This document shows positions 3,292-62,787 of a DNA stretch of 64,000 nucleotides, in pieces (position 1 is the stretch's first letter; the number at the start of each line of letters is the position of its first letter). The stretch comes from a virus (Duplodnaviria; Caudoviricetes), in IMG/VR virus record IMGVR_UViG_3300021255_000050, positions 1-64,000 of that record, one strand, 5' to 3'. The notes beneath the pieces are model-generated. The model searched no databases. It had not been told where the DNA came from and worked only from the letters and a program-made list of their open reading frames with translations. Position numbers and translations under genes: made by a program.

Positions 3292-3542
3292 TGCGCTGCA
3301 GGTTGAAAATGACATATGAAGTTCGCCAGTACAAGAAAGGCGAGAAGTTCGAAAACTTCGACGGAGTCATGCATTTCATCACAGAGAACGACAACCTGTG
3401 TATCGTGGACTTCAAGCATAACACGAAGCACCACGCATACGATGGCGACTATATCGTAATGAGCGATGATGGATACTTTGAAACATATGAACCCGAAGAC
3501 TTTGAGAAGTTCTACGAAATTATTAAGGAGGATGCTACATGA
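3291..3542 (+). CDS. Hypothetical phage protein related to the upstream gene
   Basis: GDYIV...FEKFYE motif; overlaps neighbours. Confidence 0.55.
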   Translation: MRCRLKMTYEVRQYKKGEKFENFDGVMHFITENDNLCIVDFKHNTKHHAYDGDYIVMSDDGYFETYEPEDFEKFYEIIKEDAT

Positions 3543-3955
3543 ATGAATTCGAAAAGCAGGCTGAAGAATTTCTGAAGGAAGCCGGCGCCGAAATGAACAT
3601 CGAATTTCATTGCGTTGTCGATGGTTTGCCGTTCGATATGAATGATCATCTGCAGCACAACAAGTATACCGTAACGCTGCGCCGTGGAACGAAGGAATAT
3701 ATCTTTCCTTTCTATGACAGCTATGTCAACTATAAGGACGGCACGGAGCCGACGAAGTACGATGTGCTTTCTTGTGTCATGAAGTCTGACCCCGGAACCA
3801 TGGGTGACTTCATCGAAGAATACGGCTTCAGGATTACCGGCAGGAAGACGTTCAATGAAGTCGAGGGACTTTGGAAAGCCTGCAAGAAAGAGTACGAATC
3901 ACTGCTCGAGCTGTTTGGCCCCGAACTTATGGAGAAACTCGCTGAAATTAACTAA
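3539..3955 (+). CDS. Hypothetical protein, paralog 1 of a tandem pair
   Basis: Shares AEEFLKEA...DPG.MGD...LFGPELMEKLAE with 3977-4357. Confidence 0.7.
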   Translation: MNEFEKQAEEFLKEAGAEMNIEFHCVVDGLPFDMNDHLQHNKYTVTLRRGTKEYIFPFYDSYVNYKDGTEPTKYDVLSCVMKSDPGTMGDFIEEYGFRITGRKTFNEVEGLWKACKKEYESLLELFGPELMEKLAEIN

Positions 3956-6320: not shown

Positions 6321-6959
6321 ATGATTAAGCTCATGATCGGTAACACCACCACCCGCAACATCTACATCGTCAACGAAGAGCAGACCATCCGTCAGCTCTG
6401 TGAACAGTATATGCCGACCGCAATTGGCCTGCTGTACCTGAACGACATGATCCTGACCGATGAGGACATGGACCAGCCGCTCAACAGCTTCGAGCTGATG
6501 GAAGACCGTAACCGCCTGATCTCTCTCGTCAAGACCGAGGGCGCATGGAAGGCGAAGATCGACGGCAACGCTGTGAAGATCATCTCAAGCAAGAATCTCG
6601 CAGACCTGCGCCTGTTGGAAGCTTACAACGCCAACGAGATGACGGAGACCCGCATCGATCCGTCTTCTGAAGGAAACTGGATCGTGGATGCTCAGATCTT
6701 CACGAATGAGAAAACTGGCAGCATGAGCAGCTACCACATCGCGTTCAATCCCACGCCTACTGCAAGCGGCAAGGCGTATGTCACCACAGTTCTGCCGGAC
6801 GGCGTCGAGGACAAGGAAGCGTACATCAAGGAGAACTATGGCAGGGTCCTGAAGCTCCTCAGTACTATCGAGGAGTACATGGACGACGATGTGCTCGCAA
6901 GAATCAGGGCGAACGATACGCTTGACGGCGAGTTCGTCTACGTAGATGATGAAGATTAA
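6321..6959 (+). CDS. Putative ubiquitin-like (beta-grasp) domain (~74 aa, ending VKTEG) fused to a C-terminal domain of unknown function
   Basis: AAGGAG RBS; beta-beta-alpha-beta pattern in the first ~75 aa; first gene of the E2/JAB/E1 operon. Confidence 0.55.
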   Translation: MIKLMIGNTTTRNIYIVNEEQTIRQLCEQYMPTAIGLLYLNDMILTDEDMDQPLNSFELMEDRNRLISLVKTEGAWKAKIDGNAVKIISSKNLADLRLLEAYNANEMTETRIDPSSEGNWIVDAQIFTNEKTGSMSSYHIAFNPTPTASGKAYVTTVLPDGVEDKEAYIKENYGRVLKLLSTIEEYMDDDVLARIRANDTLDGEFVYVDDED

Positions 6960-6981
6960 GTAAGAAAGAGGGCTGCATATA

Positions 6982-8310
6982 ATGTATTTCGGCGATGTAA
7001 CGGCATTATTGCCTGGAACGATCATGGAAGTGAAAGAGTTCACCATCAATGATGAATTCTCGAAACTTGCATATCAGTATTTATTACATGATAGAATCGA
7101 GGTCGCTGGAGGCATTATATGCGGCCCTTCAAATTCTGTGGAAGATGACAGCTTCGGTGCAACCATCTACATCGTGAATGATTCACGATTAAGAACAGTC
7201 TTGCACGAAGCTGATACTGTTATCTGGGATACTTTCAATAGCCATATACATAGGGCTGTAAAGAAAGTGTATGTGACACCGAAAGGTAATTATGTTATCG
7301 ACATAAGCGATAGCGTTACCTCTCGTGATAAGGTCGCTAGGCTGGCATCGATCATGGTGCCAGTCTTCTTTCCGCAGCTGTTCATTGACAAGCCTCTGAC
7401 GGACAACGAGAAAGCATTCCTGACGAAAGCTTCTATGTCCAGGAATAGCACCGAGCTGACGGAGGCTGCGAACATCGCGCTTAAGGACCCCGTTATTCGC
7501 GATTTGGTGCAAAAACAGAGCTTAAGTAATCTCGTAAATGTGCTTAAGACTAACGAGGTGAAGAATGCTCGCAAGGTTGTCGCTGAACTTAAGTCAAATA
7601 TAGCTGCGCTTGCTGATAAGTATGCTTTGGAGAAAGATAAGTTGAAGAGGGAAGAGTACCACCTCTTCGCTCTTGAAAACCACATCAACAGCGCTGAGTT
7701 CAACGAGAGCATTAAGGACTTCATCGCGCTTTTCGAGAACAATCCGAAGCTCGAAATCCTGCAGGTGAAAGACAACGGCTTGATGGAATATCGCATCAAG
7801 ACAAGGCTGAACTACTTTGATCGGAAAGAAAGGTTCTTCGCACACATCCGGCAGGCTGATCAGAAGTTGATGGACAGCATCTTCTGTGCGAACCCCACGT
7901 TCGAGATCGAAACGTATGCGGATATTACGGTTGAGAACGGGAGCTTCCGGTCCGCAGCATCACGGCGCGTTGGCGTGAACCACGCAATCGAAATCGCCGA
8001 TGACGTGTATGCGGTGCCGAATCCGCATATCATGACGTTCAACTGCTTCGGCACTGCCGACTTGGTGCTGCATGATCTGCTTGGTTCCGGCAACTATGCT
8101 GGCTTCATCATGCAGACTATGGCATCAGCGAGCAATGCGAACCTCGTTGACGTTTCACCGATGCGGAACCTTGAAGAGGAACTGTTCATCCATTCAAGGA
8201 ACAAGAAGGTACTGTACAACAAGGTAACCAAGACGCATATGACAGTAGAGGAGGCGATTGAGTATGTTCACTCTCACATGGAGCGCGAAGGCTCACGAGA
8301 AGATGCGTGA
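6982..8310 (+). CDS. Coiled-coil protein with C-terminal E2/UBC-like domain
   Basis: PNPHIMTFNCFG resembles the E2 active-site HPN/PH...C motif; coiled coil near aa 170-240; operon context. Confidence 0.55.
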   Translation: MYFGDVTALLPGTIMEVKEFTINDEFSKLAYQYLLHDRIEVAGGIICGPSNSVEDDSFGATIYIVNDSRLRTVLHEADTVIWDTFNSHIHRAVKKVYVTPKGNYVIDISDSVTSRDKVARLASIMVPVFFPQLFIDKPLTDNEKAFLTKASMSRNSTELTEAANIALKDPVIRDLVQKQSLSNLVNVLKTNEVKNARKVVAELKSNIAALADKYALEKDKLKREEYHLFALENHINSAEFNESIKDFIALFENNPKLEILQVKDNGLMEYRIKTRLNYFDRKERFFAHIRQADQKLMDSIFCANPTFEIETYADITVENGSFRSAASRRVGVNHAIEIADDVYAVPNPHIMTFNCFGTADLVLHDLLGSGNYAGFIMQTMASASNANLVDVSPMRNLEEELFIHSRNKKVLYNKVTKTHMTVEEAIEYVHSHMEREGSREDA

Positions 8311-8683
8311 GCTTGTAGATAATAGGGATACTGAGATCGGTTGGTATGGTGTATGCGAGCGTGTCGGTGATCGAGTGAAGGTCACCGACATTCTTGTTTA
8401 TCCGCAGCGAGTAACAGGTTCGACATTCGAAACGGATGATATCGAGATGCTCAACTGGTTCGACTCTCTGCCTATGGACGTAGTCAATCATATCCGTCTG
8501 CATGGACATAGCCACGTGAATATGCAGGTGTACCCCAGCTTGACCGACCTAAACTTCGAGGACCAGATTCTTGGAGAACTCGGCCTCGACGACTACTACA
8601 TCTTCATGATCACGAATAAGAGGGAAGAAGTTCGTTATCGCTTTATTGATAAGGATGACGAGCGGGAGGTAATCGGAAGATGA
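8264..8683 (+). CDS. JAB/JAMM metallo-isopeptidase
   Basis: N-terminal E (TEIGW) and HSH-x7-S-x2-D motif (HGHSHVNMQVYPSLTD); overlaps the upstream gene. Confidence 0.85.
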   Translation: MFTLTWSAKAHEKMRELVDNRDTEIGWYGVCERVGDRVKVTDILVYPQRVTGSTFETDDIEMLNWFDSLPMDVVNHIRLHGHSHVNMQVYPSLTDLNFEDQILGELGLDDYYIFMITNKREEVRYRFIDKDDEREVIGR

Positions 8684-9339
8684 TGAACCTTGTAAAGTCC
8701 CAGGATTATGTGAACCCCAACGATAAGCCGGAGGCCATCCAAATCCTTGGCTGCGGGTCAGTTGGCAGCAACCTTGCTGAACACCTTGCGAGGTTCGGTT
8801 TCAAGACGTTTCATCTGTATGATTTCGACGTTGTTGAAAGCCGAAATCTCGTAAACCAGATGTTTACCATGAAAGATATCAGCAAACCAAAGGTGGAAGC
8901 GGTTCGCGACCTTATACTCAGCATCAATGACGAGGCTTCCGTCGAAATCCACGACGGAAAATGGGACGAGGATTGTGATCCTCTGTTCGGCTACGTTTTC
9001 CTGTGTTTCGACAGCATTGAGACAAGGCGTAAGGTTATAGAGCATGAATTCTACAACCCGATGGTCCGGGCTGTGTTCGATTTCCGCACAGCCCTCGTTG
9101 AAGGGCAGGTTTTCGCAGCTGACTGGATGAAACTGCAGGATAAGAAGCAGCTTCATAAGAGTATGAAGTTCGAGAAAGCGGATGCTGTACCTATGACAGC
9201 TTGCGGAACCGAAATGGGGATCGCAACAACTGTTAAGGCGACCGTGGATATCGGCATGATGAACTTTATACAGTACTACAGAACGGGTAAACTCAGAAAA
9301 GTCATGAACGTTAACATAGAAAGTATGGAGATTGTATGA
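8680..9339 (+). CDS. E1/ThiF-family adenylyltransferase
   Basis: GCGSVG, DFDVVESRNLVNQ, KVEA, CFDS, candidate catalytic Cys in TACG; ATGA overlap with JAB. Confidence 0.9.
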   Translation: MMNLVKSQDYVNPNDKPEAIQILGCGSVGSNLAEHLARFGFKTFHLYDFDVVESRNLVNQMFTMKDISKPKVEAVRDLILSINDEASVEIHDGKWDEDCDPLFGYVFLCFDSIETRRKVIEHEFYNPMVRAVFDFRTALVEGQVFAADWMKLQDKKQLHKSMKFEKADAVPMTACGTEMGIATTVKATVDIGMMNFIQYYRTGKLRKVMNVNIESMEIV

Positions 9340-10454
9340 AAATATATGAAGTTCGAAAGGTAGAAGCAAAGCATAAGCCCGTTGATATTATGAAGGTTAT
9401 CAGCGGGACTGCACAACCTAAAGACTTTAAGAATGGTTTCGACAGAAACTATACGAAGACTCTGTACTATGAAATGAACTGTGATGATAGGTTTCATCAA
9501 GTCTCGATTGCACCCTTTGGCACGGTGATTACCGACGAGAACGAAGATAACTTCTATACCAGCTTCCAGATTCCGAAGCGGAGTGGCGGCATGCGCACCA
9601 TCAACAGCCCGAACAGTGCGCTGCGCCGTTACCAGAATCGTGTGCTGAACTACATGAAGAGCAAGATGCAGAACACAGGTAGGAATGGTGGCGATCACCA
9701 CACGAATGCCTGGGCTTACATCGAGCGACGCTGTCCGAGAGATATGATGATTCGCCATCAGGCGAACCAGTCTCGCTTCTATATGAAGCTGGACTTTCAT
9801 GATTTCTTTGGTTCGCTGAACATGAACTTTTGCATCAGTCAGCTTCGGAAGATTTACCCATGGTGCATGTACACAGAAGCGACGCTGAGGTCCATGCTTC
9901 GGCCTTGCTTCCTGCACAATGGTCTGCCGCAGGGTGCAGAGACCTCTCCGTGGCTGTCGAATGTGGTGATGATTCCGTTCGACAGCTGGATGAGCAACAT
10001 GCTCATGCGGAAACTGGAGCGTATGTTCGGTGGGAACTTCGTGTACACCAGATATGCTGATGATATTATTATCAGCGGCAAGTACAAGTTCTCCGTGAAG
10101 TATGTTGTTGATCAGATCGAAGGGTTCCTGGCCAGAGAATGGTATCCGCTGCAGCTGAACCCGGATAAGACTCGCTTCGGCAGTCGTGCTGGCCACAATA
10201 TGAACGTCGGCATCATGATCAATAAGGACAACGAGATGACGGTTGGCTGGAAGAATATCAACAAGTGCAAGGTGATGATCTTCCAGCTCATCAAAGACCA
10301 CCTCAATGGCCACGAATGGGATGAGCACCGTAAGAATCAGGTGCGCGGCCTAATCAACTACTACAAGTACATCCAGAAGGAGAGGATCAATGAGATCATC
10401 GAGAAGTACGAATCCAAGTATGGCGTGAAAGTGTTTGACCTTCTTAAAACTTAA
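9336..10454 (+). CDS. Retron-type reverse transcriptase
   Basis: IPKRSGGMRTINSP, KLDFHDFFGS, LPQGAETSPWLSN, YTRYADD, LNPDKT, NVGIMIN (variant of retron VTG region Y); ATGA overlap with E1. Confidence 0.85.
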   Translation: MKIYEVRKVEAKHKPVDIMKVISGTAQPKDFKNGFDRNYTKTLYYEMNCDDRFHQVSIAPFGTVITDENEDNFYTSFQIPKRSGGMRTINSPNSALRRYQNRVLNYMKSKMQNTGRNGGDHHTNAWAYIERRCPRDMMIRHQANQSRFYMKLDFHDFFGSLNMNFCISQLRKIYPWCMYTEATLRSMLRPCFLHNGLPQGAETSPWLSNVVMIPFDSWMSNMLMRKLERMFGGNFVYTRYADDIIISGKYKFSVKYVVDQIEGFLAREWYPLQLNPDKTRFGSRAGHNMNVGIMINKDNEMTVGWKNINKCKVMIFQLIKDHLNGHEWDEHRKNQVRGLINYYKYIQKERINEIIEKYESKYGVKVFDLLKT

Positions 10455-10455
10455 A

Positions 10456-10613
10456 GCTCATGCAATAACCTATTCCGAATTGCGCCTTCGGCTCATGAAG
10501 GAGGATGGTGCTCTCTGTGATACAGGGAGTGGCGAAGTGATACGCATATTTCCTGGATCCGGTAGCCCGTATCCAGGAAATGTCAAGTAAGATTTGGAAG
10601 ATCATAGATGAGC
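10456..10613 (+). ncRNA. Retron-like msr-msd unit 1
   Basis: Arms GCTCAT (10456-10461)/ATGAGC (10608-10613); G10462 after the 5' arm; hairpin CTCTCTGT-GAT-ACAGGGAG (10511-10529); 11-bp stem ATTTCCTGGAT/ATCCAGGAAAT (10548-10581). Confidence 0.65.
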
Positions 10614-10710
10614 AAAAGTTGGGGACTTCAGCCCGTCTATATGGCGGTGATAAATCGGGCGACTGGAGCAGCTCGTTGGAGAGGGGTAGACGAGCATCAA
10701 ACATCGAATT

Positions 10711-10885
10711 AACAATACATGTAATACTCGTTTGGTTTCATTAACTAGCTCCGAATTAATGTAGGAGCGCCAACGAGGCTTTCCTTGATAAGGGAAGTGA
10801 TGAATTACTAGTTTGCAGCAACTAGCGATCCTTCGGATCGCGTTGCTGCTGGGTCAGGTTACAGAATGAATTAAGATGTATTGTT
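10711..10885 (+). ncRNA. Retron-like msr-msd unit 2
   Basis: Perfect 10-bp arms AACAATACAT/ATGTATTGTT; G10721; hairpin CTTTCCTT-GAT-AAGGGAAG (10779-10797); stem GCAGCAAC..GCGATC/GATCGC.GTTGCTGC (10815-10849). Confidence 0.7.
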
Positions 10886-10896
10886 TTTCAAAGGTT

Positions 10897-11062
10897 AAGT
10901 TAATGTATGAATTGAAATCGCACAAGCAAATTATTATGCGGTTTGCTCTTCATGATATGAGGAGTAACGGATTGCCCGAAATGCCTGCGTGGATCCTTAG
11001 CAGGATCCTGCCGGCTGGCGTCAAGTCAGGTGTATCAATTTTTATTTAAGATACATTAACTT
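10897..11062 (+). ncRNA. Retron-like msr-msd unit 3
   Basis: Perfect 12-bp arms AAGTTAATGTAT/ATACATTAACTT; G10909; hairpin CTCTTCAT-GAT-ATGAGGAG (10946-10964); stem GGATCCT-TAGC-AGGATCC (10991-11008). Confidence 0.7.
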
Positions 11063-11308
11063 TAACTTTAACTTTAACTTACAGAAAGGAGAAACCCATG
11101 ACTGTTATTGGAACTTATCCCATCTGTAATAATGGAGGAATAATCGTACATAAGTATGATATGTACGAAGACAAAGTCCTCGCCAGCATGAATGGTGTGG
11201 ACGCTATGTGGTGCCCGATCGTCGAGGATTGTGACGGCGAACCGGGCTTTTATTATGGCAAAATGTTCATTCTCTTCGGAGATGTAATGAGGACGGAGGT
11301 GGCCTAAT

Positions 11309-11803
11309 ATGGTAACGTGGTACGATGACGACGGCATGGTCCACATGATCGCATACAAACTCATGCGCATTGATGAAGCGAGGCAGCTGCATGCAATGTA
11401 TGTGTTTGCGAACAAGGTTTACCCAATCGGCGAATGGATTGAAGCGGAGATCGGCCCCGACGGCAAGGATGACAAGCATGTTAAGAGCAAGCTTGGCAAC
11501 CTGTCGAAGCGCCCCGGACTGCATTGCACACTCGTACCGTGGACCGACTGGATTGGCACGATCGTTGATGATGTGAGGTGTCGGAGGCGTGAGAACGTCT
11601 GGGTCGAAGTCGAAATTAAAGGCAAGCTGGTTGCACCGTCCGGGACGAAACTCCCTGACGGTTTTTATTTCTTCAGAACCAACAGCAAACAGAAGGATCC
11701 GTGGATCATCTGCCGCTGGATGAAGATCAACCGTATTCTGCCGGAGTCCGAAGTCGATGCTCGCTGCAGAGCGGCTGGCCTCGAACCTCAGAAGATCGCG
11801 TAA
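11309..11803 (+). CDS. Hypothetical phage protein
   Basis: GGAGG RBS; 164-aa ORF with RPGLHC motif. Confidence 0.6.
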   Translation: MVTWYDDDGMVHMIAYKLMRIDEARQLHAMYVFANKVYPIGEWIEAEIGPDGKDDKHVKSKLGNLSKRPGLHCTLVPWTDWIGTIVDDVRCRRRENVWVEVEIKGKLVAPSGTKLPDGFYFFRTNSKQKDPWIICRWMKINRILPESEVDARCRAAGLEPQKIA

Positions 11804-12253
11804 GGAGGATTCGTATGCAAGACCTGTTCGTGATGTATCTGCGTGCAATGATAAAGGTAAAGAGGTACTGGGTCGAAGATCATACAGATGATCTGCGCTA
11901 TCTGTACTTCGAGCTTGAGCGTAACGAGTATATTGACAACCTCATGAAGGTGGATCTGTACGGATTTGACAGAATTGTGGATGATGATTTGACATATTTG
12001 ATACATGTTACAAATCTGGATGAACCGGAAGACCTGGAACCTTGTATCGAGCTGCACAAGAATGGTCAGTTCATTACGTTCGGACCTCTCATGAATAAAG
12101 ATGTACGGGAACAGGTGTATCGGCTTCTCGATCAACAGTGTAAAGAGGGTATCTTTATGCTTGTTAATAAGTTGCGGGAGATCGAGGCCGATGCTGCATC
12201 TGCATGATTGCTGCAGCAATAGTTTTTCGCACGAAAACATGGATGTAATAGCG

Positions 12254-12294
12254 AAGGCGGGTATTTGTTAAGGAAGAATAATGCCCGCCTTTTT
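12254..12294 (+). terminator. Putative intrinsic terminator
   Basis: AAGGCGGGTATT...AATGCCCGCCTT stem followed by T-tract. Confidence 0.5.
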
Positions 12295-12331
12295 AATCGA
12301 TTTTTCTATTGTATTCCAATAGGAGGAAATT

Positions 12332-12682
12332 ATGAAAGAATTCGAAATCGAAAAGAAGATCGTCAGTGAAAACGTGCGTGGCTGCGTATCTAGCCTTGTT
12401 GATCTGCTCGATGGCGATGGTTTGACTGCCATTGAAAAGCTTGATGACAACTACTATCGGGACAACGATTACTACGACGAAGAGAATGATGAGTATGTTG
12501 AAATCATGGAGTACTGGCTTGTTACTCCATGGCTCGGCAGCAAGCTGGCAGAGAAAGGCGAGATTGTCTGGCATGACAACTACAGTTTCGCCCTGTGGGG
12601 AAGACAGACTTCCGGCCAGGCGATCTTTCTTGATGGCGTGATCGAAGAGATTGCAAAAGATCTTAAGGAGGTTGGAGCATGA
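12332..12682 (+). CDS. Acidic hypothetical phage protein
   Basis: AGGAGG RBS; D/E-rich centre; WGRQTSGQAI motif. Confidence 0.65.
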   Translation: MKEFEIEKKIVSENVRGCVSSLVDLLDGDGLTAIEKLDDNYYRDNDYYDEENDEYVEIMEYWLVTPWLGSKLAEKGEIVWHDNYSFALWGRQTSGQAIFLDGVIEEIAKDLKEVGA

Positions 12683-13041
12683 GCTTTGTTGAGCAGACTA
12701 CGCCTATGGAGTACACGGTAACGAATCGTCATGGGGATGTGAAGAAGTTGGACTGGGACGACATGATGAGCGTCTACAGCTACGTAGACAAGTGGTACGC
12801 AGAGAACGATGTTGAAGACACGATCAACGATATCAAAGAAGGTCGCATCTCTCATCCTGCCAGCCCATACCTTCTTGAAGAACAGAAGGATAGAGTCCTT
12901 GAACTGTACATGGATTACATGGATGACGATAGATATCAGAAGTTGATCGAAGCAATGACCGAAGTCTACTATGAGGATGATGAGAAAAGGTCAGAGGAAA
13001 CCGCACGCGAATTCGTGCCTGTGCTGGGGGAGGATTTCTAA

Positions 13042-56367: not shown

Positions 56368-57798
56368 TTAAATTCGGACCCCAGCTTCTTTCATTGCTGC
56401 AGCAAGAGATTTTGCTACAGATTCGCTGAGTGTAATAGTAACGACAGGTTCTACAGCCGGCGGCATCGGTGCGATTTCCTCGCTCGGAACCATTGGTGCA
56501 GCAAGGAATTGAGACATGATGTAGCCGCTCTTTCCGTTAAACGAAACCGGAGTCCAACCACCAGAGGGTTCGCCGGCGGTTACGATGGTGCCAACAGGCA
56601 GCTGCTGGATAATAGCGGCATCGGCGCTCGGCTGGTGCCGGAAATTAACGCTCTTGCCGTTTGCTGATGTAATGACCATGGTCATATGCACATCTTCTTT
56701 CTTTGTAGGGTTAGTATAGTCAATGCCTTTCAGCTCGCCCCAGTGGGACCACGTGGTCACCTTTGATTTGATGACGCCGGTCTTTGCCCCTTGCGCTTCG
56801 ATTACCTCGCCATTGCCAATGTACAGGCCAATGTGGTGGTAGCGCTTCTTCGGGTCTGGGTCGTACTTAAAGACTGCAGTGCCGGGGAGAAGCTCCTTGC
56901 CATCAATGCGCTTGCCGCGGGCGAGGGCGCCATTTGCTGTGCAGCCTTTGGACCAGATGGAGTTCGAGCCGTGGTAAATAGTCTGGCCGTGCTTCTTGAA
57001 AGCGTAAACAAAAAGACCAGAGCAGTCAGTAACGTTGTGGTTGATCCACTTCGAACCATACTTGATCGAGTATGTGTAGTTGGGATCAGAAGCTTTCGTT
57101 TCTTTCAGCCGAGCTTGCTTGGCAGCGGACCACACCTCGCCGCTCGTGCCATAGATGTAGCCGAAGTTGCTGGTGAGAGCATACTCGAATTCGGAGATAA
57201 GTGTTTCAGGAATCATAAGGTCACCACCTTGTATGGTTGATCCGGGATAATAAAAAGCGAGGATTTCCTCGCAGCTTTTGCCATGCTCCGCAGCATAGAT
57301 CGCACCAACCTGGCTCATGCCTACGCCGTGGCCGAGCTTCACACCATCGCTTGCTGCGGAATCCCATTCATCAGGCTGCGAGATAAGGTAAGGTCGCGAC
57401 CCGCCCCAGCGTTCTGCGGATGAAGTTGTGTGGCCGCCGTTCGAGTGCGAGTAGGAGCAGGGCGAGAGCAGCTTATCGTTGTAGGTGAGGACGCGACCGG
57501 CGGTAGCGCGGGCTGCAGTTATGGCATTTGGGTATGTAGTGTTATTAAGCCTTTCAATACGGAAAGCTTGGGCCGACGAAGATGAATCTGAGATAGCTTT
57601 GCCAGCTTGAATATATGAATATGCCAGTGTTCGAGACGCAATTGCTTGGGCTTTACATGCTTCGAGCGGGGCATTGCCAATTTCGGAAGCAACTACGCAG
57701 GAAATATAATCCTCCAGATCAAAATAAATAACGCTGCCCACAGTCGTATGAAAGTAGGCAGCGTTATTTGCGTTGGTAAGTTTTATGTCAATATTCAG
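56368..57798 (-). CDS. Endolysin: SpoIID/LytB + NlpC/P60 + SH3
   Basis: LEDY...VV.SE...EA.KAQAIASRT...GHGVGMSQ.GA...IL.FYY; DCSG...HIGLY; VNFR..PS...GW......GYIM; probable CTG start at 57798. Confidence 0.8.
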   Translation of the reverse strand: MNIDIKLTNANNAAYFHTTVGSVIYFDLEDYISCVVASEIGNAPLEACKAQAIASRTLAYSYIQAGKAISDSSSSAQAFRIERLNNTTYPNAITAARATAGRVLTYNDKLLSPCSYSHSNGGHTTSSAERWGGSRPYLISQPDEWDSAASDGVKLGHGVGMSQVGAIYAAEHGKSCEEILAFYYPGSTIQGGDLMIPETLISEFEYALTSNFGYIYGTSGEVWSAAKQARLKETKASDPNYTYSIKYGSKWINHNVTDCSGLFVYAFKKHGQTIYHGSNSIWSKGCTANGALARGKRIDGKELLPGTAVFKYDPDPKKRYHHIGLYIGNGEVIEAQGAKTGVIKSKVTTWSHWGELKGIDYTNPTKKEDVHMTMVITSANGKSVNFRHQPSADAAIIQQLPVGTIVTAGEPSGGWTPVSFNGKSGYIMSQFLAAPMVPSEEIAPMPPAVEPVVTITLSESVAKSLAAAMKEAGVRI

Positions 57799-57963: not shown

Positions 57964-58092
57964 TTACTCGGCATAAGGTTCACCGACGATTTCTTCATAC
58001 TGTTCAGGAGTGATAACACCCTTCTTGACAGCATTGGCTACCATGGTCTTAGTCCACAGACGCGGATACCACTTCTTAATCTTCTCAAACAT
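57964..58092 (-). CDS. XkdX-family small phage protein
   Basis: MFEKIKKWYPRLWTKTMVANAVKKGVITPEQYEEIVGEPYAE (below the ORF-track cutoff). Confidence 0.8.
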   Translation of the reverse strand: MFEKIKKWYPRLWTKTMVANAVKKGVITPEQYEEIVGEPYAE

Positions 58093-59281
58093 TCTCATCA
58101 ACCTCCACTTCGTCTTCGGGAAGCTCAATATCGGCCATCATAGCGATGTATTCCTGGAAGGCCTCGAACTTCTCCATAGCCAGTTCCATAACGTCATTGC
58201 GCTGCTTCACTCTGGCAGCAACCAGTTCCTTGTTCAGAATCATAGTAACACCCTTTCTTTGTTTAAGGTATAATCTATGCATATTAGAGCGAGCACCGCT
58301 TGTATTACCGTGCTTCGCGTATGCATTCAAACATGTATAACTCTCATTATATTTTCCCAATGGCATTATACCAGCAGAAACTTTACGAATCAACTTCTTC
58401 AGCTTTGACCGCTCACGCTTTGAAGACGCTTTTGAAAGCTTTCTCAAAACCTTACCTGTTCGTGTAAGGATAAAGCGCCACTTGAGAAATACAATGCCTT
58501 GGGATAATTTATAAATACAAGTTTTCTTGTTTAGCGTTAATCCCATCTCAAATAACTTTTCTTTGATTACATTTAAACAATACTGTAGATAAGCCTTATC
58601 TTCATGAATAAGAATAAAATCATCCATGTAACGAATGTAGTGCTTGATATGCAATTTTTCTTTAATGAAGTGGTCAAGATCATCCAGCACAGCAAGTTGT
58701 ATTAATTGACTTACCTGACTGCCAAGACCAATACCACGATCGCTACCAAAAGAATCAATTATATCAACAGTATATTTGTATGCCATGTCGTCTTTTACTC
58801 TTTTGCGAACAGCAGCTTTAGCAACATCATGAGGTGTTTCCGGGAAGAAGTGATGTATATCACACTGCAGAACATATCCATCACAACCGCTTTCTCTATA
58901 GTACTTATGCAAGTGATGGTTCATTCTATCAAGAGCAAACGTTATTCCTTTGCCAACATGACAAGCGCAATTATCATAAATAAAACTTCTTGTAATAGCC
59001 GGAGTAAGAATGTTATCACAAAGAGAACGCTGAAAAGCACGGTCGCGAACACGAGTCGCAACGATTTCTCGCTCTTTGGGTTCGTGAATGGAAAATATCT
59101 GATAAGGACTTATCTTGTATGATCCATCCAAAAGAGATTTGCGCAGCGAATGAACTTCACGTGATAAACTCAAAGAGAATTTGACTACAGAATCTTTCCA
59201 CATAACATTTCTGCAGGATTTCTTCGCACCTATCCAAAGCTGTTCGAAGCTAATTGCTTCTTCAAATGTCTTTATATCCAT
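58085..59281 (-). CDS. DGR reverse transcriptase
   Basis: EPKER, RDR..QRSL, DN.AC..GKG, CDI.HFF, GIGLGSQVSQ (SQ motif), YIRYMDD; adjacent TR and avd. Confidence 0.92.
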   Translation of the reverse strand: MDIKTFEEAISFEQLWIGAKKSCRNVMWKDSVVKFSLSLSREVHSLRKSLLDGSYKISPYQIFSIHEPKEREIVATRVRDRAFQRSLCDNILTPAITRSFIYDNCACHVGKGITFALDRMNHHLHKYYRESGCDGYVLQCDIHHFFPETPHDVAKAAVRKRVKDDMAYKYTVDIIDSFGSDRGIGLGSQVSQLIQLAVLDDLDHFIKEKLHIKHYIRYMDDFILIHEDKAYLQYCLNVIKEKLFEMGLTLNKKTCIYKLSQGIVFLKWRFILTRTGKVLRKLSKASSKRERSKLKKLIRKVSAGIMPLGKYNESYTCLNAYAKHGNTSGARSNMHRLYLKQRKGVTMILNKELVAARVKQRNDVMELAMEKFEAFQEYIAMMADIELPEDEVEVDENV

Positions 59282-59453
59282 AATAAAAGAACTACCGGGT
59301 TAATAGGCTAAGCCCTTGCGGGTTCATATCTTTGTCCCATACGTACAAAGTCACGGCCATCACCGGCTTGTATTCACCCATACAGGTTATGTTGCAAACT
59401 CCCTGAATCATGCACTGATTTCACTTAAACGTTACTTTATTCTCGCTTTGTAT

Positions 59454-59581
59454 CCAGTCCGCGGCCAGCCCGTTCGCGTTGTTCGCATTATTGTTGTTGG
59501 GGGCGCCGGAGGTGTTGACGTTACGCACATTGTTTGCATTAGTCGGGTTAGGACCACGCAACCACCAATTGCGGGCAGCAG
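59454..59581 (-). repeat. DGR template repeat (TR)
   Basis: 128-bp ungapped match to the VR; 21 of 22 mismatches are at TR adenines. Confidence 0.95.
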
Positions 59582-59609
59582 CTTATAGTTTGCAACCTAG
59601 AGTAAACAG

Positions 59610-60119
59610 TTACGCTATCTGTTGTTTCAGCAGAAAATCATTGAGCCTTGCAAGCTCATGAACGATTTGATGCATGACATTTTGCTCCTGGAATATTTTG
59701 GCATCAGAAATAATCTCTGCGTATGATTTGCGATCACCTTTTCTCCAGGCGATAAGCAGCTTGGATGTTTCGTCGATTAGTTCTTGCCAATAGTCCATGC
59801 TAAGATCTTTTAAGTATCCAAGATCAATAGCAAGATTAATGTCAGCCTCAAGAGCTTCTAACGAATTTTGAGCTTCAATCATATAGTCTCTCCGTTTTGT
59901 ATAATCTTCATAAGTTTTTACATTGATTCGGTTTGCTTTTCGAATGTAGCGATATACATCAAGCGCATCATTTTTAAGATCACTACCTATGATCCATCGT
60001 TGCGATTTTGGAATATGTTTTTCGCTTTTCAGCCCAGTTAATACAGTGTATGCAAGCTGCCGGGCTTTAACCGCTACTTGTAGCTTACCTTCACTCCTGT
60101 CATACTTTGGAACAGACAT
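59610..60119 (-). CDS. avd: DGR accessory variability determinant (four-helix bundle)
   Basis: MSVP...R.E...PK..R......I..AN...R...W...D pattern; located between target and TR. Confidence 0.8.
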   Translation of the reverse strand: MSVPKYDRSEGKLQVAVKARQLAYTVLTGLKSEKHIPKSQRWIIGSDLKNDALDVYRYIRKANRINVKTYEDYTKRRDYMIEAQNSLEALEADINLAIDLGYLKDLSMDYWQELIDETSKLLIAWRKGDRKSYAEIISDAKIFQEQNVMHQIVHELARLNDFLLKQQIA

Positions 60120-60139
60120 ATGATTTCACTCCTTTATGC

Positions 60140-60171
60140 GTGTTCCCCACCCCTTGCGGGGCAGGGAACAC
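60140..60171 (-). promoter_or_regulatory. DGR cis hairpin downstream of VR
   Basis: GTGTTCCC..CCCC-GCAA-GGGG..GGGAACAC about 30 bp after the target stop. Confidence 0.7.
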
Positions 60172-60200
60172 TGTAATTCGATTAGAAATTCTACCGGATT

Positions 60201-61634
60201 TTAGATTGCCCAGGCCGCGGCCAGCCCGTACGCGCTGTTCGCAAGATCGCCGTAGGTGGCGCCGGAGGGGCGGACGCAACGCACAAAGTTCGCAAGAGTC
60301 GGGTCAGGACCACGCAACCACCAAATGCGGGCAGCAGAGTTCAGCTTCTTGATTCTGTCAGCATTTGTAGCACCATTGTAGTAAGCATAAGGCACAGTCT
60401 TGCTTGTGGCAGAACCATCGACGCCATAGCTGGTTTCGCTGATGCTGTTATTCTGACCGAAACCGACTTCGGTATTGCTGACAAGGAACACATAGTCTTC
60501 AGTCTCGACGAAACCGTCGCCATCGCAAGTGCCGAGAGCGTGAATCTTCTTAACCTTCTTCATAACCTTGCGCAGTGCAGGATCAATCATGGACAGGAAA
60601 CCAACCATAGTTTCGACGTTGGCGGGCGGGAAATCCCACTCGTTTTGCTTGGTGAACCAGCCGGTCCCGGCGCTGTTCAGACGCTGCCGGATGTTGGACT
60701 GGTCCCAGCGGTTGCAGCCATGCGCCTGCCGCCGAGTATAGTTCATGTGTGCGGTCTTGATGCCGACATCTTCAGCGGTGCAGGTGCCGAGGCTTGTGCC
60801 TTCGGGAGCATCAATGGTTTCCAGCTGCTCAATCTGAATAAAGTTGGGACCGTAGGTAATAAACTTACCAGCCAGAAGAGCTGCGCGGGTATAGGTGTTA
60901 TCGGACCGATATACACCGAGGGTGCTGTGACGAACATAGCCGCCAGCAGGAACGTCCTGCGTTGGAGTGAAACCAATCGTACCATCCTGGCTGGTGGAGT
61001 TGTTGTAGGCGCCCTTCAGCACTTCGATGGTATAGGTGGTGCCGGAGGTAAGGCCGCTGGGATAATCGGTCGGATCAACATAGAAGAGAGCTTCCGGCGC
61101 GTCAAATTGCATATTCTGCAGGCAGTTCAGCATCTGCATAGTCATGCTGTGCTTGAACTCAGAGTTCGCTGGGGTGTCGTAATCGTGGTCCAGCACAACA
61201 ACTTCAACGGAGTTGTCGGTTTCGGTAACAACGATCGTATCGTTAGCATCGGGGGTGCCTTCGAAGGTAATACCGTACTCAGCGATGTTCACGGAGTTGC
61301 CGTTGAGCTTCCACACAACACCATCGTAAACGAACTCGTAGATCTTGTTCGCTACTTCGCCGGCAGCCTGAATGAATAGCACTTCGTTCACGGCGACACT
61401 GGCGATGCTGGAGCTTGTGGTGGTGACGGCCATGCCGGCTTCGATCTCAACGGTTTCGATGGTGCCGGTAGGCATAGCCTTGGCGCCGAGGCCCATATCA
61501 ACGAGGTTGCGCTGGCCAGCGAAGTTGATCTTCTGGTCCACGCCACCGGCCTGTGCAATGGCGATCACATTCAGCGCATTTACGATTTCATGACCAGTGC
61601 TGTCAAGAATGATAGGGTTAGTAATTTCGGACAT
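60201..61634 (-). CDS. DGR target protein (C-type-lectin-fold C-terminus; likely receptor-binding)
   Basis: N.W..S.IRQ.LN, D.VFL.S..E, WWLR.P...G..AA; VR at the 3' end. Confidence 0.85.
   Translation of the reverse strand: MSEITNPIILDSTGHEIVNALNVIAIAQAGGVDQKINFAGQRNLVDMGLGAKAMPTGTIETVEIEAGMAVTTTSSSIASVAVNEVLFIQAAGEVANKIYEFVYDGVVWKLNGNSVNIAEYGITFEGTPDANDTIVVTETDNSVEVVVLDHDYDTPANSEFKHSMTMQMLNCLQNMQFDAPEALFYVDPTDYPSGLTSGTTYTIEVLKGAYNNSTSQDGTIGFTPTQDVPAGGYVRHSTLGVYRSDNTYTRAALLAGKFITYGPNFIQIEQLETIDAPEGTSLGTCTAEDVGIKTAHMNYTRRQAHGCNRWDQSNIRQRLNSAGTGWFTKQNEWDFPPANVETMVGFLSMIDPALRKVMKKVKKIHALGTCDGDGFVETEDYVFLVSNTEVGFGQNNSISETSYGVDGSATSKTVPYAYYNGATNADRIKKLNSAARIWWLRGPDPTLANFVRCVRPSGATYGDLANSAYGLAAAWAI
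60210..60337 (-). repeat. DGR variable repeat (VR)
   Basis: Aligns to TR at constant offset 756. Confidence 0.95.
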
Positions 61635-62787
61635 ATAAAAACACTTCCTTATACAGAATAGGTAATACAAACACGCCCATCGACGATGGACAGGTTTAGC
61701 TTTTCCAGTGCGGTAGTGCGCTCTTCTACAGCGCTGACCACATCTTCTTCGGCGACCAACCGATCGTCGAGGTTTGCTGTATCTTCTTTCAATTGTGCGA
61801 CATCTGCCTTCATATCAATAAATTCCTGCGTTTTCTCCGCAGGAACGAGATGCCCTATAGCTTCTACAATTTTGCGACCAGTGGAGTCCAAAAGAATAGG
61901 ATCACTATGAATCATCTTCCTCATCCTCCCTGTATCTGCAGCAAAGTTTGCCGTTGATTATTTCGAGGCCAAGGTTCTGCAGCAGCGCGTCAATGGCTGT
62001 GTATTCCGGGATAACTTCTTCAAGCAGTCCGGCCACTTTGCCATCGAGTATGTCCACAGCTTCATCGAGGTCTACGAGCTTTTGTTTTTCTTCTGGTGAT
62101 GTGTGAATTGTCGCGTCAGCAATGTGAGCAGCTACGGCAGATCCAGAACCCGAGCCGCCGCTTTTTCTGGCAAGAGCAAGAGTGAGTATATCCATATGCA
62201 TCACTCTCCAATAGGCTGCCAGACTCTGTTGATATCGAGCATCCAGATATTTGCGAGGTCAGCTGTATAAGCAATGCTGCCGGGAGCAAGCTTCATTTCG
62301 GCAGCATCGGGCAGATCATTTTCGCCGTCAACAAGGAGCTCAAGCAGATCAGCCAGCGCACTTTCGCCGTTTCGTTTTACCGCGGTATAGCTCATAACAT
62401 CACTCCTTCAGTACCTGGCACAGTTCGCCGTTGCTGTTAACGACGAAGCCAAGTGCTTCAAGAGCGTCTGCAAGCAGGCCATCAGCGTTCTCACGGATAG
62501 CTGCTTCGGAGTTGACAGAAGCATGAATGTTTTCGGCGACCGTGTCGTAGCCTGTGTCGAGGACGACCTTGCCAACTACTTCATCGAGGTCTTCCTGGAT
62601 TGCTGGGACGGTCGTATTAGCCAACTGCTCAATAGCTGTGGTATTGGCGGCAATCTGGTTTTCCTGCTGGTTGTGGTCGGCAGAATAGATGATGTCGCCT
62701 GGGTTGCGAATTTGTGTGTTGTAGGCCATAGAAACACTCCTTTCTATGAGTATATAAACAACTGCAGCGCGTCGAACTACAGTACGT

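Follow-up and report, generated by a model that had tools for sequence, protein, structure and literature searches.

Retrons are the textbook one-RNA, one-enzyme defence elements of bacteria. Their reverse transcriptases (RTs) carry the signature motifs NAxxH and VTG, and their noncoding RNAs share a common plan in which two inverted repeats, a1 and a2, pair to form a duplex with the branching G beside it. The RNA is usually single and lies upstream of the RT gene. In a scheme that Mestre et al. are said to have put forward in 2020, retrons fall into types I-XIII, with Ec86/Eco1, St85/Sen2 and Ec78/Eco7 as classical examples.

Arrays of RNA templates have been described in two other settings. 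The UG27 RTs of phages are accompanied by variable arrays of ~150-nt ncRNAs, each of which templates a hairpin cDNA of 50-100 nt, and the accessory proteins of these systems (sORF and bORF) have no conserved domains (bioRxiv 10.64898/2026.09.22.753630, a Minerva preprint of September 2026); the UG27 RTs themselves had been described earlier by Mestre et al. 2022 (PMC9226505). With engineered retron arrays, or "multitrons", a single retron RT has been shown to make use of several msr-msd units arranged in tandem on the same transcript (bioRxiv 10.1101/2023.07.17.549397). Clades of viral retron-like RTs have also been noted before, without analysis of their RNAs (PMC13681634). A search of the literature found no paper on natural multi-template retrons, nor any that connects a ThiF/JAB cassette with an RT of the retron lineage.

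The locus considered here belongs to IMGVR_UViG_3300021255_000050, a complete virus record of 115,379 bp with direct terminal repeats; the window, meaning the whole stretch of DNA analysed, is its first 64 kb. Three units that follow a single RT gene on the same strand are probably separate, functional retron-type msr-msd RNAs, all of them served by that one upstream enzyme. Given an RT beside three different complete templates, and relatives that usually have two or three, one enzyme probably makes several small DNAs. Two features at the far end of the window concern the virus at large. A SpoIID/LytB-domain protein (56368-57741, minus strand) with a peptidoglycan-hydrolase-like C-terminal part hints at a host among the Bacillota, and a second RT of 398 aa (58085-61670, minus strand) stands beside an Avd-like gene (59610-60119; NCBIfam DivGenRetAVD, 1.3e-5). 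The two together resemble a diversity-generating retroelement; they are not related to the retron-type RT.

The RT gene that precedes the units (9336-10454, plus strand) encodes 372 aa with a YADD active site and matches Pfam RVT_1 at 4.8e-20. A preliminary description of this DNA had read the locus as a natural multiplexed retron, and comparisons with profiles and solved structures do assign the enzyme to the retron lineage. Against PADLOC, RT_II-A was the best of 68 matches (2.7e-48), followed by I-A and III-A, and the top 25 were all retron RTs. Among solved structures in the PDB, all matches at E < 1e-7 were again retron RTs (5.9e-18 to 1e-8), of types Ec78, Ec67, Ec83, Kva2 and Ec86. Retron models scored 163-179 bits, compared with 38 bits for Drt2. 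That said, the enzyme differs from the RTs of classical retrons in two respects. Its NCBIfam scores fall under the curated family cut-offs (179 bits for retron_St85_RT with a cut-off of 235, and 98 bits for the Ec67 family with a cut-off of 450), and it departs from the signature at both motif positions. In an alignment to the retron RT 9n69_E, DNALLH is replaced by DMMIRH and VTG by NVG, so that of the motif residues just the H and the G remain; the consensus of the RT's own family at the VTG position is NLG. The YADD motif, for its part, is invariant across 26 family members. The low scores together with MMIRH and NVG at the motif positions place the RT in a divergent branch of the retron lineage, outside every named retron type.

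Upstream of the RT, a run of plus-strand genes extends from 6321 to 9339. The last of these encodes a ThiF/E1-like adenylyltransferase (8680-9339; Pfam ThiF 2.1e-22, with matches to the PADLOC E1-E2 models), and its stop codon overlaps the start of the RT gene. Before it lie the genes for a 141-aa, weakly JAB-like protein (8258-8683; PADLOC JAB at E 0.006 and Pfam Prok-JAB at E 0.07, both weak) and for a 442-aa protein (6982-8310) with no match in Pfam, NCBIfam or PADLOC. The first gene of the run (212 aa) was matched by tblastn in eight loci only. In the same kind of search over 88 related loci, 82 had a ThiF gene no more than 4 kb upstream of the RT, 79 had a match to the JAB-like protein and 66 a match to the 442-aa protein. 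Because this company is so regularly kept, the RT can be counted among the genes of a phage cassette that is itself conserved. Classical retrons, too, are tightly linked to accessory genes. Those, however, reside in bacterial defence islands or travel as prophage cargo, whereas the present family is carried by phages of ~100 kb, and its partners, a JAB-like/ThiF(E1) cassette, are not a described retron effector.

The gap 3' of the RT gene is 644 nt long, contains no notable open reading frame and extends to the next gene, which starts at 11098. It holds unit 1 (10456-10613), unit 2 (10711-10885) and unit 3 (10897-11062), all on the plus strand. Units 1 and 2 are separated by a 97-nt spacer (10614-10710) that folds no better than its shuffles (z -0.24) and is matched by none of the covariance models discussed below. 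No Rfam family matched positions 8000-13000, even at E 1, and a blastn search of 8200-11400 against 50,697 phage records gave no match. Counts of candidate promoters and terminators were at the level of shuffled sequence, with none on the plus strand within the gap. Since neither kind of signal stands out there, the units would likely be co-transcribed with the upstream genes, as the 3' end of a cassette-RT operon.

All the elements that the preliminary description had listed for a unit (two arms, a G, a short hairpin, a long hairpin, GTCA(A/G)G and AG) are found in each of the three, at the positions given there. The 5' arms (a1) are GCTCAT at 10456-10461, AACAATACAT at 10711-10720 and AAGTTAATGTAT at 10897-10908. 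Each ends in AT and is followed directly by a G (10462, 10721 and 10909). The 3' arms (a2; 10608-10613, 10876-10885 and 11051-11062) are preceded by AG and are perfect complements of their partners, giving duplexes of 6, 10 and 12 bp in units 1 to 3, just as had been claimed. The short closing helix of unit 1 can be extended across a small internal loop by pairing AACTT (10448-10452) with AAGTT (10616-10620), for a total of 6 + 5 bp; extended in this way, the unit overlaps the stop codon of the RT gene. The 3' arm of unit 3 runs into a tandem repeat of TTAACT (4.2 copies at 11056-11080, 100% matches in Tandem Repeats Finder), which prolongs it as far as the ribosome-binding site of the next gene. 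The same repeat permits slipped alternative pairings of 7-8 bp with 10896-10903.

Between the arms, each unit contains two hairpins in its 5' part and a longer one in its 3' part. Stem 1 varies in size and shape: it lies at 10485-10501 in unit 1 and at 10919-10940 in unit 3, while in unit 2 it is composite, with 10727-10735 pairing with 10770-10777 around an enclosed element at 10748-10768. Stem 2 is built alike in all three, as an 8-bp hairpin of the form CT..AG whose loop is GAT (10511-10529, 10779-10797 and 10946-10964), preceded by G and followed by T. The long hairpins occupy 10548-10581, 10814-10849 and 10983-11015. Each has GTCA(A/G)G on its 3' side (GTCAAG at 10582-10587, GTCAGG at 10853-10858 and GTCAAG at 11020-11025). 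As a motif of the wider family, this hexamer had to be given up: it is common to the units of the window and was not seen in relatives, one of which (L082) has GACTAG instead. The a1/a2 repeat, the G at the duplex end, the recognition hairpins on the 5' side and the long hairpin on the 3' side all recall classical retrons, as does the lineage of the RT. The number and position of the units do not: classical retrons have one ncRNA, located upstream, whereas here there are three, all downstream, and relatives carry one to five in total, distributed over both sides of the RT.

Hairpins will turn up by chance in AT-rich intergenic DNA, and transcription terminators form hairpins too. When the gap is shuffled, 4.9% of the shuffles do in fact yield one inverted repeat of 10 bp or longer. 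Several observations leave such an origin for the units with a negligible probability. When each unit was folded as RNA, the check that had been proposed for them, all three were more stable than dinucleotide shuffles: -57.7 kcal/mol (z -3.79) for unit 1, -60.2 kcal/mol (z -5.25) for unit 2 and -57.8 kcal/mol (z -5.46) for unit 3. The 115-kb genome as a whole has three copies of the pattern G-CT(N6)-GAT-(N6)AG-T, one in each unit. Of the genome's 22 inverted repeats of 10 bp or more with a spacing of 100-260 nt, only those of units 2 and 3 show the signature of an arm ending in AT before a G, with AG before the second arm; no repeat on the minus strand shows it. The gap, moreover, has no terminator-like site on its plus strand, and the covariation of stem 2 and the covariance-model matches described below speak against chance as well.

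Much of what can be said about the units comes from relatives of the RT. A protein search gave thousands of matches. The best 120 are proteins of ~380 aa with 35-44% identity, and contigs of 100-150 kb carry many of them. A scan of IMG/VR yielded at least 493 related loci, of which 80 were retrieved; a metagenome scan that used the single RT protein as query found no relatives. The related RTs sit in phage contigs of ~100 kb, nearly always behind a JAB-like/ThiF(E1) cassette. Next to them, inverted repeats flank stretches of 245-335 nt. The 5' arm ends in (T/C)(G/A)(T/C)AAT followed by G, and the 3' arm is preceded by (T/C/A)AG. These units are placed directly downstream of the RT, in tandem, and/or ~300 nt upstream of it. 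When aligned, their 5' parts show the succession a1-G-N-A-T-A, stem 1 and G-CT..stem 2..AG-T-AAC, which is the order seen in the window, and the G 3' of a1 is invariant in all 42 aligned units. Their 3' halves are poorly conserved in sequence. A k-mer enrichment noticed in the 3' parts (GCAGC, CCTGAAG) was set aside, being confounded by residual homology and position-specific motifs. In one relative (L083, 4524-4964), the downstream unit is directly followed by a gene for RNase H, the enzyme by which the templates of retrons are trimmed.

A covariance model (R1) built from the 42 5' modules of these distant relatives gave 96 matches in 60 sources, every one of them on the RT strand and adjoining an RT. 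In the R1 alignment, 89% of cells are paired, compared with 35-45% after a shift of the partners by 1-3 columns; 408 cells are doubly changed, and the covariation score is 0.71, compared with 0.13-0.18 after the shift. This alignment was fitted to its own model, but RNAalifold run on a plain MAFFT alignment had already found double changes in all six of the pairs that it predicted. The covariation that the preliminary description had called for is thus strong in the 5' module of distant relatives.

Within the window, R1 recovers unit 2 only, and weakly (13.7 bits, E 2), so homology to the distant branch rests on the shared architecture and on a second model made from nearer relatives. In a tree of 120 RTs, the window RT falls in a sub-clade (support 0.988) with P0002, P0064, P0007, P0003, P0004, P0006 and P0009, and all the contigs of this sub-clade carry units whose stem 2 has 8 or 9 bp and a three-base loop (GAT, GAC, GTT, GAG or GAA). 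In an ungapped alignment of 12 such modules, including the three of the window, 95% of the stem 2 cells are paired, compared with 38-55% when slid, and seven of the nine pairs are changed on both sides. The compensatory changes claimed at the outset for the 8-bp hairpin therefore hold up in a wider sample. Model R2 was built from nine modules that lie outside the window, beside related RTs on other contigs, and was run over both strands of the 64 kb with filters off. Its three best matches are unit 1 (10508-10539; 33.9 bits, E 1.2e-6), unit 2 (33.0 bits, E 2.1e-6) and unit 3 (29.7 bits, E 1.7e-5), and the next match in the window scores 15.5 bits; the seeds had been selected by visual inspection guided by the pattern of the window units, which favours a match. 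R2 also found units beside other RTs that had not been among its seeds, for 15 matches in all, each on the RT strand. The covariance-model check that had been proposed thus came out positive: models drawn from the flanks of homologous RTs recover the units of the window.

A different question is whether all three units are functional, or whether one works and the others are decaying duplicates. The closing duplex of unit 1 is short, and stem 1 varies between units, as might be seen in copies on the way out. All three, on the other hand, keep a perfect 8-bp stem 2 by way of compensatory changes, and they receive similar R2 scores, a combination that makes decay improbable. The number of units in relatives points the same way. 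Among 38 loci, 16 have three units, 15 have two, four have one, two have four and one has five, so that 34 of the 38 have at least two. Three is thus the most frequent number in distant relatives, a pattern that speaks for selection on how many units a locus has. Variation in number beside homologous RTs had been anticipated, and it takes this form: one to five units, most often three, all on the RT strand. The multi-unit layout is therefore the rule of this phage RT family and not a peculiarity of the window genome. The commonest arrangement in relatives is one unit upstream and two downstream of the RT, and R2 found just this arrangement in three loci (L001, L085 and L093). The window, with all three in tandem downstream, is a variant within the family.

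One member of the same sub-clade (L090, 1-6032) has a context that is not phage-like. Its RT lies between a 1420-aa NACHT-like protein (NPHP3_N, a weak match) and a NERD/UvrD-type helicase, and the locus may represent a version of the system that serves in cellular defence. Here one unit is present, downstream of the RT at ~3524-3692; its beginning overlaps the stop codon of the RT gene, and a terminator marks its end. Given this placement, an ncRNA directly 3' of the RT looks ancestral for the branch.

If the three units are indeed retron-type templates, the course of events can be sketched. Each unit would close on itself through its a1/a2 duplex. The RT would recognize the 5' module, that is G-N-A after a1, stem 1 and a 9-bp G-CU...AG-U stem 2 with its three-base loop, and would prime on the 2'-OH of the G that adjoins the duplex. 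Starting at the base before a2, it would then copy the 3' part back through the long hairpin, and three different DNAs of ~65-85 nt would result, each with a single-stranded 5' leader of ~26-35 nt and a hairpin of 7-15 bp. They would be the complements of about 10531-10607, 10799-10875 and 10966-11050. Folded as DNA, these predicted cDNAs form hairpins (z -6.6, -5.7 and -2.5). We infer the existence of three msDNAs that start from the 2'-OH of a G, and likewise their transcription, the priming chemistry, the exact product ends and any biological role.

The chemistry of priming deserves particular caution. The units might be templates for the RT and yet be copied by a non-retron route, with no 2'-5' branch, with priming from a 3' end or from a protein as in other RTs of phages or of defence systems, and with a1/a2 serving only for the definition or processing of a unit. 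At the NAxxH and VTG positions, the canonical residues are missing from the window RT. UG27, a related phage RT system, makes hairpin cDNA by a mechanism that is not described as branched, so retron priming cannot simply be assumed here. The position of the invariant G tells against such a route: in the 42 aligned units of relatives and in the three of the window, it lies exactly at the retron branch point. The RT, in addition, groups with retron RTs and not with the class 2 UG/Abi RTs. On balance, we consider non-retron priming rather unlikely, if a real contender.

A further reading would have no reverse transcription of the units at all. They could serve as structured RNAs, either by binding to the RT or to proteins of the JAB-like/E1 cassette, or by regulating or stabilizing the 3' end of the operon. 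Their conservation is known at the level of RNA alone, and it is the 3' halves, the presumptive templates, that are poorly conserved in sequence. The whole retron plan is nonetheless kept (a1/a2, G and a long 3' hairpin), and the units always accompany an RT with an intact YADD. A purely structural role is accordingly given a small probability, and separate retron-type msr-msd RNAs are preferred.

What the predicted DNAs might be for was approached from their sequences. Three of the nine GGATCC sites in the 115-kb genome fall in units 1 and 3, within their long hairpins (10555, 10991 and 11003), and the stem of unit 2 holds CGATCC/GGATCG. The idea that msd stems act as decoys bearing restriction-type sites finds no support beyond this GGATCC excess, which was noticed post hoc, and elsewhere in the genome the site is only mildly avoided (6 observed, 12.3 expected). 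The strongly avoided palindromes GAGCTC (1 observed, 26 expected) and TCCGGA (3 observed, 21 expected) are absent from the units. A comparison of the units with the rest of the phage genome for antisense targets gave no complementarity beyond chance.

The system most like this one in outline is UG27, also a phage-borne RT with a variable array of structurally conserved, sequence-diverse ncRNA units. The differences are nevertheless many. UG27 is a class 2 UG/Abi RT with YSDD, whereas the window RT is retron-like with YADD. The partners of UG27 are the domainless sORF and bORF, and those of the window RT are a JAB-like protein and a clear member of the ThiF family. UG27 units start with AUC-N7-UANAG; the window units lack this motif and have an a1/a2 duplex and a G. 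The motif had no plus-strand match in 10456-11062, and its count over the whole window was at chance level. An identity with UG27 was ruled out from YADD, from retron scores above those of Drt2, from the ThiF partner and from the absent AUC-N7-UANAG, a judgement made on these features. The multitrons, for their part, share with the window locus a series of tandem msr-msd units and a single RT of retron type, which in the multitrons yields several RT-DNAs. They are man-made, however, and derive from the ncRNA of one retron with swapped donors, whereas those of the window family occur naturally, have diverged and are kept throughout a family of phages. In the light of the UG27 preprint, the window array is somewhat less of a surprise.

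Should the proposed reading be true of these phages of lytic size, it would mean that viruses, too, make use of retron-lineage enzymes and that an RT can be given several templates to work from. Taken with UG27, it would point to a general phage RT strategy, the production of sets of small hairpin DNAs, that evolved at least twice. Units of 115-175 nt would offer compact natural scaffolds for multiplexed DNA production in cells. The link between a retron-lineage RT and parts of a ubiquitin-like conjugation system merits separate study, and the constant presence of the JAB-like/E1 cassette gives a handle on what such DNAs control. By analogy with retrons, complexes of RT and DNA may control or inform that co-inherited cassette in conflicts between phage and host or between phages. 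A more specific proposal, which we offer tentatively and consider possible rather than likely, is that across this large family of ~100-kb phages a retron-lineage RT makes a fixed small set of branched msDNAs, typically three, and works with a phage-borne ubiquitin-like conjugation cassette (a JAB-like protease, an E1 and their partners) as a multi-sensor or multi-decoy DNA system that the virus itself would deploy when in conflict with host defences or rival phages.
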